Below are positions 27,001 through 30,000 of a DNA stretch of 64,000 nucleotides, in pieces (the first letter of the stretch is position 1; every line of letters starts with the position of its first letter). Position numbers: made by a program. The stretch lies in NCBI RefSeq assembly GCF_057098645.1, contig NZ_CM169472.1. One strand, written 5' to 3'.

Positions 27001-30000
27001 TATAAGATACCTTAACCCATTTTATTATTACACATCTAAAACATCACAAAAATATCATTTCACACACTATCGGAGAACATCATAACTTTTTAAAATGAGC
27101 GCTTTTTGATAGTTGTTAACGTTTTCTTTTACGATACTATCAATGCCCTTTTTTATACACAAATATTACCGGGTGGAGATAAAAGGGAAGTCAAAGGTAA
27201 TTATATCAGGAAGATATGACGCATGATATTTATTGTGCGTAGAAGAAAATCCATTCCTGCTTTAATTATCCAATTTAAAAATCTTAGCATAAAACAGATA
27301 ATGAATAAGGAATGTTATGTCAATTGACTTTACCCCAGGTATGATAAATACATATCACGGCGATATTTATAACCGCACAACAGATACCGACAATGTTAAA
27401 ACACCAGACACACCGATGTGGCCTTGTGATAATCGGGAAGAACAACAACCCATTAATTCCACATTCTCTGGAGAAGGATACAACCCTGAACAATATGATT
27501 TAGCGCGGCAACACCTCCCACAAATTTATGCGTGCCGCACGAACACCAAATATACAGATGCAGACTACTCAAAAGTTGTGGCTCAACTTGTAAGTCTTAT
27601 TACTAACATTGAATCGATAAGTTCGACACCACTTACGCGGCAGGCACAGGAAATACTTAATCAAATTAATAACATTAGATACGAAAAGAACAAAAGTGCT
27701 GAATGTCGAATCATTGTTGTCGCTAATCCTAAACCCGACAAGGCAATCATAACTAAAATTAGCGTAGAAGAGGGAATACCAGTAAGATTCAGTGTCCAAA
27801 CCATGTTTTCAGATACTAATTTTATTGCTGAACAACGAGCTGACTTACCGACTAATATAAAAGATATTCAAAGCCTGTATCAAAAAATGACGAAGTTATA
27901 TATTGAGCACAGTGAAAATAAAAACAGGATGAAAGTCTTTGCCGGAACCAACTTTATTGATTTCAATATGACAGGACAGAACCTGTCCGGGTTCGTTCTA
28001 ACCTTGTCAAGGTTTTATTTCGAAGATCTACTTAATATAAATTTCACTGACGCAAATTTAGGTGACACTATTTTTTCACATAAAGAACACCCTACCCCAA
28101 AATTATATAAAGACGAACAATATCTTGACAAACAAATCGAAGGTTTATTTTCAACATTATTAACCATTAATGACAACTTTTTACGAGCAAAAGCGGAAAT
28201 TGCTTCGACAATAATTAAATTTTTAGAGGCCAGGATAACCAATCTTTCATACAACGACATATTAAAATATCAGCAAGAATTCCAAAAAGAATGTTATAAG
28301 CAAGTTAAAGCCTTTACGACACTCTCTCGATATAATAAAATTCGAACATGGGCAGAAATGTCTGAATATCAATTCGAAGTATTTCAATACGAGACGCTTA
28401 ACCCAAAAAAAATGTCACACACGCCTTATTTAAAGAGGCCACTTCCTAATGAAAAAGATATAAATTATGGGGTGGAAATAGAAATACCATCTGGCAAAAG
28501 AATTCGCTTATCAAATCATTATCAGAATATAATACCATAATATTGATTATTAGCACTTTATAATCATTGAATAAAAATAGATTTTATGTAATTTTAAAAC
28601 AAAGGATTATATTATGGGGCGATGGATACTCATGTCACGCCCCAAAATCAATGGAATTGAACTAAACAAAAGGGATATAAACATCAGACAGGTTTACGTT
28701 ACTATCAGGCATATCGCCTCAGAATCAGATGAAAACTATAAAGAAATATCTATTATGGTTTTAATATTTGTTGATAAGGATAGTAACATGAACATGACAA
28801 AAGGTGCACTCATCCTCAGCCTTTCATTTTTGCTTGCCGCATGTAGTTCAATTCCGCAAAATATCAAAGGCAATAACCAACCTGATATTCAAAAAAGTTT
28901 TGTTGCTGTTCATAACCAGCCGGGGTTATATGTTGGTCAACAAGCGCGCTTTGGTGGGAAGGTTATCAACGTTATCAATGGCAAAACGGATACGTTGTTA
29001 GAAATCGCTGTATTACCGTTGGATAGCTATGCGAAACCTGATATTGAAGCCAACTATCAGGGCCGACTGCTCGCCAGACAAAGCGGCTTCCTTGACCCAG
29101 TGAACTATCGTAATCACTTTGTTACCATCCTCGGTACCATTCAGGGTGAACAACCAGGCTTTATCAATAAAGTCCCGTATAACTTCCTGGAAGTGAATAT
29201 GCAGGGCATCCAGGTGTGGCATTTGAGAGAAGTGGTTAATACCACCTATAACCTGTGGGATTACGGCTATGGTGCATTCTGGCCGGAACCGGGCTGGGGT
29301 GCGCCTTACTACACCAATGCGGTGAGTCAGGTAACACCTGAGCTGGTCAAATAACACCACCGAAAGATGCAGATGCTTTCTCAGCATCTGCATCATGTAT
29401 TACATAAAATTAATATACAGTAAGCTAACTATTATTATAAGCCCTGTCCTGTTAATTACCTTTGGCAAACTGATTATAAAGTTAATGTCCGCACCAGGAG
29501 TCGGTTATGTTTCTTATAATTACCAGGGATACGATGTTCTTCACCGCGATGAAAAACATTCTGAGTAAAGGTAATGTCGTTCATATACAGAACGAAGAAG
29601 AGATCGACGTAATGTTGCATCAGAATGCCTTCGTCATTATTGATACATTAATGAATAATGTATTTCATTCTAATTTTCTCACTCAAATTGAACGATTAAA
29701 ACCTGTCCATGTCATTATTTTCTCCCCCTTTAATATTAAACGCTGCCTGGGGAAAGTGCCGGTGACCTTTGTTCCGCGGACTATCACTATCATTGATTTT
29801 GTCGCACTCATCAATGGCAGTTACTGCTCTGTGCCTGAAGCGAATGTGTCACTTTCGCGCAAGCAACATCAGGTATTGAGCTGCATTGCGAATCAAATGA
29901 CAACGGAAGATATTCTGGAGAAACTGAAAATATCGCTAAAAACGTTCTACTGCCATAAACACAATATCATGATGATCCTCAATCTTAAGCGGATCAATGA

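Follow-up and report, generated by a model that had tools for sequence, protein, structure and literature searches.

The gene yhiS was examined in a 64,000-nucleotide stretch of Escherichia coli DNA (contig NZ_CM169472.1 of NCBI RefSeq assembly GCF_057098645.1; the whole stretch is hereafter the window). It lies between arsC and slp in AT-rich DNA and encodes a protein that the Prokaryotic Genome Annotation Pipeline (PGAP) of RefSeq calls a 'hypothetical protein', with no NCBIfam model. The open reading frame (ORF) appears intact, and its product carries a short pentapeptide-repeat tract. YhiS is most likely a putative intracellular protein-binding scaffold.

The yhiS reading frame

The gene and its immediate sequence features are as follows.

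26950–28790, no strand assigned: AT-rich island between arsC and slp, limits approximate, comprising yhiS and the DNA upstream of it (GC profile)
27307–27311, plus strand: Shine-Dalgarno-like AAGGA, 5 nt 5′ of the ATG (sequence reading)
27317–28540, plus strand: yhiS coding sequence (CDS), 407 aa plus stop, intact (ORF listing, allele lengths, 100% match to strain RM9872)
28058–28061, plus strand: TTAG where IS5 sits in K-12, within the ninth repeat, ANLGD (BW25113 comparison)
28405–28412, plus strand: A8 homopolymer; 371-aa and other frameshifted variants arise when this or another A-run changes in length (allele comparison)

An earlier note on this DNA, made by reading the sequence, had described yhiS as an uninterrupted 407-aa ORF in an AT-rich segment, and the ORF was recovered exactly as described. 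It starts with ATG. GC content is 0.351 over the CDS and 0.311 at third codon positions (GC3); the window average is 0.488. Windows of 500 nt across 26750–28999 have a GC content of 0.31–0.38, and those upstream 0.52–0.59. At the base composition of yhiS, the chance of 407 stop-free codons is ~1e-13.

Positions 27000–28700 are 100% identical to E. coli O145 strain RM9872, in which the gene order is prlC-rlmJ-gor-dinQ-arsC-[yhiS]-slp-dctR-chuS-chuA. RefSeq/PGAP calls the identical RM9872 sequence (NZ_CP028379.1, I3Y_RS21920) a 'frameshifted' pseudogene spanning window positions 27317–28433. That end point is the stop codon of a 371-aa variant with C4A6 in place of the A8 run. Among homologues 407 aa is the commonest length, found in clusters of 8964, 2855, 539, and 394 member sequences, and it is retained in allele classes down to 76% identity. 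An allele at 63% identity encodes 410 aa and retains the C-terminal tail INYGVEI..P.GKRIRLS.HYQNIIP. Because the 407-aa form, including this tail, is conserved in all divergent allele classes, we infer that it is the intact form. The PGAP flag probably reflects the choice of a shorter reference protein and not gene damage.

Frameshifted variants at three comparison loci (L006, L008, and L014) differ at poly-A runs, with A8, A7, or C4A6 at one run and A7 or A9 at another. Run differences of A6–A9 among alleles may stem from slippage that switches the gene on and off, or from homopolymer errors in assemblies of long reads.

The split of K-12 yhiS by IS5, stated in the earlier note, was confirmed in BW25113, where the gene is interrupted by an IS5 transposase gene. 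Comparison with a reconstructed K-12 gene had also been proposed there. Removing the 1199-nt insert at TTAG gave back an uninterrupted frame of 407 aa, 92% identical to the present one.

The repeat tract and predicted architecture of YhiS

The protein was divided into the following segments, with structure predicted by AlphaFold2 (AF2) and confidence given as the predicted local distance difference test (pLDDT).

27317–27496, plus strand: N-terminal aa 1–60, polar and T/D/N/P-rich, predicted disordered, net charge −7 (pLDDT 21–37 in both models; composition)
27557–27910, plus strand: aa 81–198, predicted helices, a five-strand sheet (~aa 117–176) and a helix at 184–198, at low to medium confidence (AF2)
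27932–28081, plus strand: pentapeptide-repeat tract, 10 contiguous repeats, aa 206–255, ~2.5 coils of a four-sided β-helix (statistics, sub-threshold Pfam, profile matches, AF2)
28097–28147, plus strand: post-repeat linker, aa 261–277, aligning with '..QLYSTKSY.DKDLSG', the linker found after blocks of repeats in long metagenomic proteins
28115–28399, plus strand: aa 267–361, predicted six-helix bundle (pLDDT 68–83, seeded AF2)
28412–28537, plus strand: C-terminal tail, aa 366–407, lost in 371-aa variants (conserved even in the 63%-identical allele)

A loose five-residue periodicity had been reported at about aa 200–245. The peptide quoted for it is in fact aa 211–253; the periodicity is real, and the full run spans aa 206–255. 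Leucine, phenylalanine, or methionine occupies the pentad centre ten times running, at every fifth residue from aa 208 to 253. Such a run of 10 was reached by 0/5000 protein shuffles (maximum 7), and none of 5000 shuffles reached the simple repeat score of 35 (maximum 26). The tract fits the published consensus, taken for scoring from a review (PMC8145042), at 34/50 positions, a fit equalled by 3/3000 shuffles. Across 90 alleles, all ten centre positions vary solely among hydrophobic residues. Inward and outward repeat positions showed no significant difference in entropy (p=0.39).

A profile of 17 YhiS alleles (A1) was searched against 1.84 billion cluster representatives and against the PDB. 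The first search yielded a single full-length cluster, fragments of YhiS, and 13 long proteins that match at profile positions ~180–330 (core 204–277) with E-values down to 1.6e-8. Ten of the 13 were scanned with Pfam, and all ten belong to the Pentapeptide family PF00805 (E 1e-36 to 1e-80). In the PDB, A1 matched only Rfr32 of Cyanothece (2F3L, E=0.0066) and thylakoid TL15 (3N90), and the single YhiS sequence found the same two proteins with weaker scores. The YhiS tract aligns without gaps to the helix region of Rfr32, and MAFFT placed 33 repeat fragments essentially gap-free on aa 206–254. Because shuffle tests, a recurrent Pfam Pentapeptide match, and the profile matches agree, every checked match outside YhiS being a pentapeptide-repeat protein, the periodic stretch is taken from sequence as a genuine, statistically real tract of the pentapeptide-repeat type.

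Several results weigh against that reading and for a periodicity due to chance or composition, in a segment that forms no β-helix. PF00805 is the sole family match for YhiS, at 11.6 bits (E=0.22) against a gathering cut-off of 20.2, which is an operational threshold and not a structural definition; it recurs in 16/17 alleles (best E=0.037) while no other family recurs, and every match falls below the cut-off. AF2 with the 17 alleles gave a mean pLDDT of 45.9 and modelled the repeat as helices and coil below 50. Fold searches found nothing significant. Residues at several i-2 positions of the repeats are bulky or charged (K, F, Q, F, E). A β-helix was modelled, at medium confidence, when the alignment was seeded with repeat fragments. 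Mean pLDDT then rose to 52.5, aa 210–256 scored 66–74, and β bridges formed at 212/232/252, 222/242, and 227/247, the 20-residue spacing expected of a four-sided helix. A chance periodicity is nonetheless very unlikely, given the shuffle results, the conserved hydrophobic centres, and the finding that two independent libraries always return pentapeptide-repeat proteins at the same segment. The likeness to pentapeptide repeats proposed in the earlier note thus holds in the shuffles and profile matches and falls short in the Pfam hidden Markov model score; the β-helix it had looked for is present in the seeded model and missing from the unseeded one. The outcome that the note had named as refuting its reading, no repeat-family match together with a predicted fold lacking a β-helix, was not observed.

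Among known proteins, close counterparts of the tract include units in long metagenomic repeat proteins (P0162, P0174, and P0153), each of ~10 repeats followed by the linker listed above. YhiS aa 204–277 matches one whole unit, including a GQNL motif and the linker, with single-domain scores up to 25 bits. The metagenomic proteins repeat the unit many times and add other domains, whereas YhiS has a single unit. Several of them have PEP-CTERM matches of 17–21 bits, at or below the Pfam cut-off of 20.7. Compared with Rfr32, TL15, and PF00805 proteins, the YhiS tract is short, degenerate, and below the Pfam threshold, and unlike PF00805 repeats it sits between unrelated domains without detectable homologues. 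The region at aa 81–198 has no Pfam or NCBIfam match and no recognisable family. NCBIfam, PADLOC-DB (0 families at E up to 1), and PHROGs gave no YhiS matches.

Repeat number and charge bear on an analogy with DNA mimics that had been raised for this stretch. Qnr- and MfpA-type proteins are almost wholly repeats, about 8–10 coils, with a negative surface resembling that of DNA. Ten repeats, or 2.5 coils, are far too few for this type. The tract has a net charge of just −2 and covers ~12% of YhiS; ~85% of the protein lies outside the repeat. No Qnr or MfpA chain appeared in the PDB searches. That YhiS protects gyrase or topoisomerase as Qnr, MfpA, AlbG, and McbG do has a single point in its favour, that those are also pentapeptide-repeat proteins, and it is extremely improbable.

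YhiS has no hydrophobic segment (maximum 19-residue Kyte-Doolittle score 0.99), and neither a signal-peptide-like N-terminus nor a membrane segment was found in its sequence. Export signals of the Sec type, for which a check had been suggested, are therefore lacking.

Distribution, divergence, and loss

Every named YhiS homologue comes from E. coli or Shigella; precomputed Pfam domains are absent from all of them. On this list and the search of 1.84 billion sequences, YhiS is an orphan confined to E. coli and Shigella. Peptide and DNA scans of 100,044 species-representative genomes returned nothing, E. coli itself included, and are uninformative on sister species. Among complete E. coli genomes, 5417/5426 match the region, and 3997/5426 have at least 80% of the yhiS CDS. 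The gene is single-copy at a fixed chromosomal site in nearly all genomes, including strains that lack the locus of enterocyte effacement (LEE).

A mobile origin was considered and rejected. There were no copies in phage records, and three records in the plasmid collection PLSDB that carry yhiS (NZ_CP134663.1, NZ_CP141089.1, and NZ_OL790696.1) are E. coli sequences of 4.8–4.9 Mb, evidently chromosomes. A 17-nt inverted repeat (26989–27005 and 28558–28574, 94% complementary) brackets yhiS and its upstream region and is rare by shuffling (~2%). It was rejected as the mark of a mobile cassette; it is absent from other alleles and is probably fortuitous. Kinship with YhiJ/YhiL (DUF4049), encoded in a nearby AT-rich island, was likewise rejected, with no similarity found.

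The gene has been inactivated independently several times. In K-12, IS5 lies inside repeat 9; phylogroup B2 strains, such as a Nissle derivative, have a ~900-bp deletion; and one enterotoxigenic E. coli strain has an IS1-associated loss. Homopolymer frameshifts also inactivate the gene, and some of these could be assembly errors.

Divergence was compared with that of neighbouring genes. In ~5420 genomes, every gor and slp–dctR match is at least 95% identical; of the yhiS matches, 1166/4366 fall below 95% identity. Seven intact yhiS alleles were then compared, together with flanking genes, for nonsynonymous (dN) and synonymous (dS) divergence and their ratio omega. Whole-gene values for yhiS reach 0.127 (dN) and 0.306 (dS), with omega 0.4–0.5, against dN 0 and dS ≤0.05 for slp, and dN ≤0.007 and dS ≤0.137 for dctR. 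Between loci L007 and L010, arsC and dctR are identical and yhiS differs by dN 0.117 and dS 0.284. The nine other strains examined all share one protein accession for Slp. The 63% allele occupies the same locus, with flanks 93–99% identical. Identity profiles of yhiS are mosaic (loci L005, L007, and L009–L013, over window 26265–30037).

Constraint is uneven along the protein. In deep comparisons, aa 204–300 have dS 0.5–0.65; within them omega is 0.22–0.27 for aa 204–257 and 0.13–0.25 for aa 258–300, the most constrained segment. The most variable segment by omega and entropy is aa 301–365 (omega 0.5–0.8), and omega is up to about 1 (0.8–1.1) in aa 1–116. The first ~180 nt (aa 1–60) have the lowest dS between alleles (0.06–0.16), yet an omega of 0.54–0.87.

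One reading of these data is that yhiS is a long-standing polymorphic locus, with a constrained repeat core, repeated loss, and allele classes that predate typical core-genome divergence in E. coli and are shuffled by intragenic recombination among strains whose flanks are identical; it would mark an E. coli-specific repeat-based effector or immunity family in a host or phage arms race. The allele-class comparison behind it sets segment dS of 0.5–0.65 against ≤0.14 in flanking genes. It is a rather doubtful reading as a whole; if true, it would mean a new, previously unrecognised effector or immunity family.

The same data bear on whether yhiS is instead a decaying orphan silenced by H-NS, with the repeat a relic and the divergence due to relaxed selection. 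E. coli is known to have a class of AT-rich ORFans that evolve fast. The whole-gene omega, the values near 1 in aa 1–116, the several independent inactivations, and the share of complete genomes with most of the CDS would fit such decay. Overexpression of YdeO in K-12 did not induce yhiS (PMC4222967), and no functional study of the gene was found in the literature searched. Relaxed selection does not account for a dS five- to tenfold that in the flanks, and the repeat and linker keep omega at 0.13–0.27 despite their high dS. Allele classes that differ by dS 0.3 keep the 407-codon frame open, for which the chance is ~1e-13 per allele, and the 63% allele retains the C-terminal tail. A decaying relic is unlikely.

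YhiS resembles H-NS-silenced E. coli ORFans in its restriction to one species, 35% GC, H-NS association, high dN/dS, and frequent loss (PMC3661553). It differs from them in its length (407 aa), its frame kept across deep alleles, its recognisable repeat fold unit, and a synonymous divergence far above that of the flanks. The arsC/yhiS intergenic region is among the H-NS-associated 'promoter islands' (PMC3661553), and yhiS has been named as an H-NS/StpA site (bioRxiv 10.64898/2026.02.10.705075). Near-consensus sigma-70-like antisense promoter matches occur within yhiS at 28131–28102 and 27883–27854 on the minus strand, one scoring 11/12, and directly downstream at 28638–28611 on the minus strand. 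The region has 16 sigma-70-like sites against 10.3 expected. Such matches are to be expected in AT-rich DNA that H-NS binds, where spurious promoters occur inside genes.

A hypervariable, mosaic, AT-rich, and often-lost gene beside highly conserved flanks could also be a single-gene phage-defence or abortive-infection sensor, its variable surfaces tracking phage proteins and its repeat acting as a decoy or binding platform. The distant match P0167 joins repeats to a HEPN_Swt1 domain (37.2 bits; Pfam cut-off 27.5). YhiS itself has no PADLOC or PHROGs match and no nuclease, NTPase, or other effector domain in Pfam, and no partner gene is present. Its fixed single-copy position in nearly all genomes and the absence of phage-record copies also speak against a defence gene, and we consider this role improbable.

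Candidate role and genomic surroundings

The earlier note had also likened the stretch to secreted effectors. In its fullest form, YhiS would be a substrate of the type III secretion system (T3SS) of the LEE or of the degenerate E. coli type III secretion system 2 (ETT2), with the disordered N-terminus as signal and the β-helix binding a host target. A short repeat tract in a non-Sec protein is in keeping with this, and the first 60 aa, disordered and T/N/P/D-rich, have a composition that is compatible and not diagnostic. The gene lies in an AT-rich, H-NS-associated island of an enterohaemorrhagic E. coli (EHEC) O145 genome, and its fast, mosaic divergence is as expected of host-interaction genes. 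EspY3 was reported to be T3SS-secreted with tracts of 8 and 9 repeats (PMC6313403). EspY3 of EHEC and PipB/PipB2 of Salmonella resemble YhiS as non-Sec proteins with repeat tracts, encoded in AT-rich islands; the comparison of YhiS with them covered motifs and published descriptions. PipB2 was reported with about 30 repeats (PMC6313403), and YhiS has only 10.

The likeness to SopA, NleL, and EspX is that of effector-type E. coli genes with a repeat β-helix, some of them pseudogenes in K-12. Against K-12 yjbI (a 'SopA family protein' of EspX type), tblastn of YhiS gave only spurious matches of 15–20 aa and no similarity even in the repeats. YjbI has ~30 repeats, read from its translation, and YhiS lacks a HECT-like domain in Pfam. 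Regular expressions for WEX5F (WE.{5}F), an N-terminal motif of EspY/SopD-type effectors, and for LFNEF or LFN[ED], LFNEF being the motif with which the PipB2 C-terminus binds kinesin, found no match in YhiS, no Pfam effector family matched, and SopA/NleL chains were absent from PDB matches at E up to 10. The yhiS gene has no chaperone gene next to it and occupies one chromosomal site across nearly all E. coli, LEE-negative strains included. Four Asp fall within the first 30 residues, which is atypical of T3SS signals. The effector analogy did not hold up in the yjbI comparison, the motif searches, or the search for a signal peptide or membrane segment, and type III secretion of YhiS is a small possibility.

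The best explanation, to which we give about an even chance, is that YhiS is an intact, soluble protein found only in E. coli and Shigella, with no Sec export signals and a short repeat β-helix serving as a protein-binding platform, silenced by H-NS and conditionally useful. The gene would have been acquired as AT-rich DNA. The protein would have four parts: a disordered polar N-terminus, a small α/β region, the short pentapeptide-repeat β-helix, and a C-terminal helical bundle. Its conserved core would be the single short repeat unit with its linker. The short β-helix may form a rigid platform for binding protein and not a DNA mimic, capped at one end by helix 184–198 and at the opposite end by the linker with the helical bundle. 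The rapidly evolving surfaces of the N-terminus and aa 301–365 may contact a variable partner. H-NS would hold yhiS largely silent under laboratory conditions, and we propose that the gene is frequently lost because it is useful only conditionally. The effector, defence-sensor, and relic alternatives to such a scaffold differ mainly in the identity of the partner.

Around yhiS, the window differs from many strains in gene content. At 25360–26265, arsR and arsB are absent and the order is gor-dinQ-two AgrB RNA matches-arsC; an Rfam scan of 25000–30100 found only the two AgrB copies, upstream of arsC. The Nissle-derived B2 strain (L003) has the same order without arsR and arsB. Many other strains have arsRBC, and some add an ArsR/SmtB regulator and a permease between arsC and yhiS. 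Palindromic units resembling repetitive extragenic palindromes and bacterial interspersed mosaic elements (REP/BIME; e.g. GTCGGATGCGACGCTGGCGCGTCTTATCCGACCTAC), recognised by eye, lie at 26740–26850, just 3′ of arsC at the boundary between GC-rich and AT-rich DNA. As in EHEC, B2, and D strains, the haem-uptake genes chuS and chuA (30098–33157 and beyond) separate dctR from the remainder of the acid fitness island; in K-12, yhiD-hdeBA directly follow dctR.

A second AT-rich island (34–37% GC) encodes the DUF4049 proteins YhiJ and YhiL at 8865–10487 and 11047–12423, both on the minus strand. YhiJ resembles calcineurin-like phosphoesterases (E=0.0013) and a WipA-like phosphatase domain (E=0.033) weakly, below threshold, which hints at a putative cryptic effector-type phosphatase. 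The YhiL ORF falls short of the full DUF4049 model, matching positions 1–230 of 333.

For YhiS, the repeat core gives a first structural handle on a protein with no annotated domain, together with a testable idea of a protein-binding scaffold. A likely mis-call is corrected, the intact 407-aa form being labelled 'frameshifted' in the RefSeq record. Since K-12 yhiS is broken within the repeat, work in that strain cannot address the function of YhiS. The annotation gain is modest, lies within a known fold class, and does not overturn current understanding; the divergence pattern is the more interesting by-product. Because it contrasts strongly in divergence with its neighbours and has been lost repeatedly, yhiS is a reasonable candidate for studying selection on genes that are specific to E. 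coli and lie at the border of the acid fitness island.

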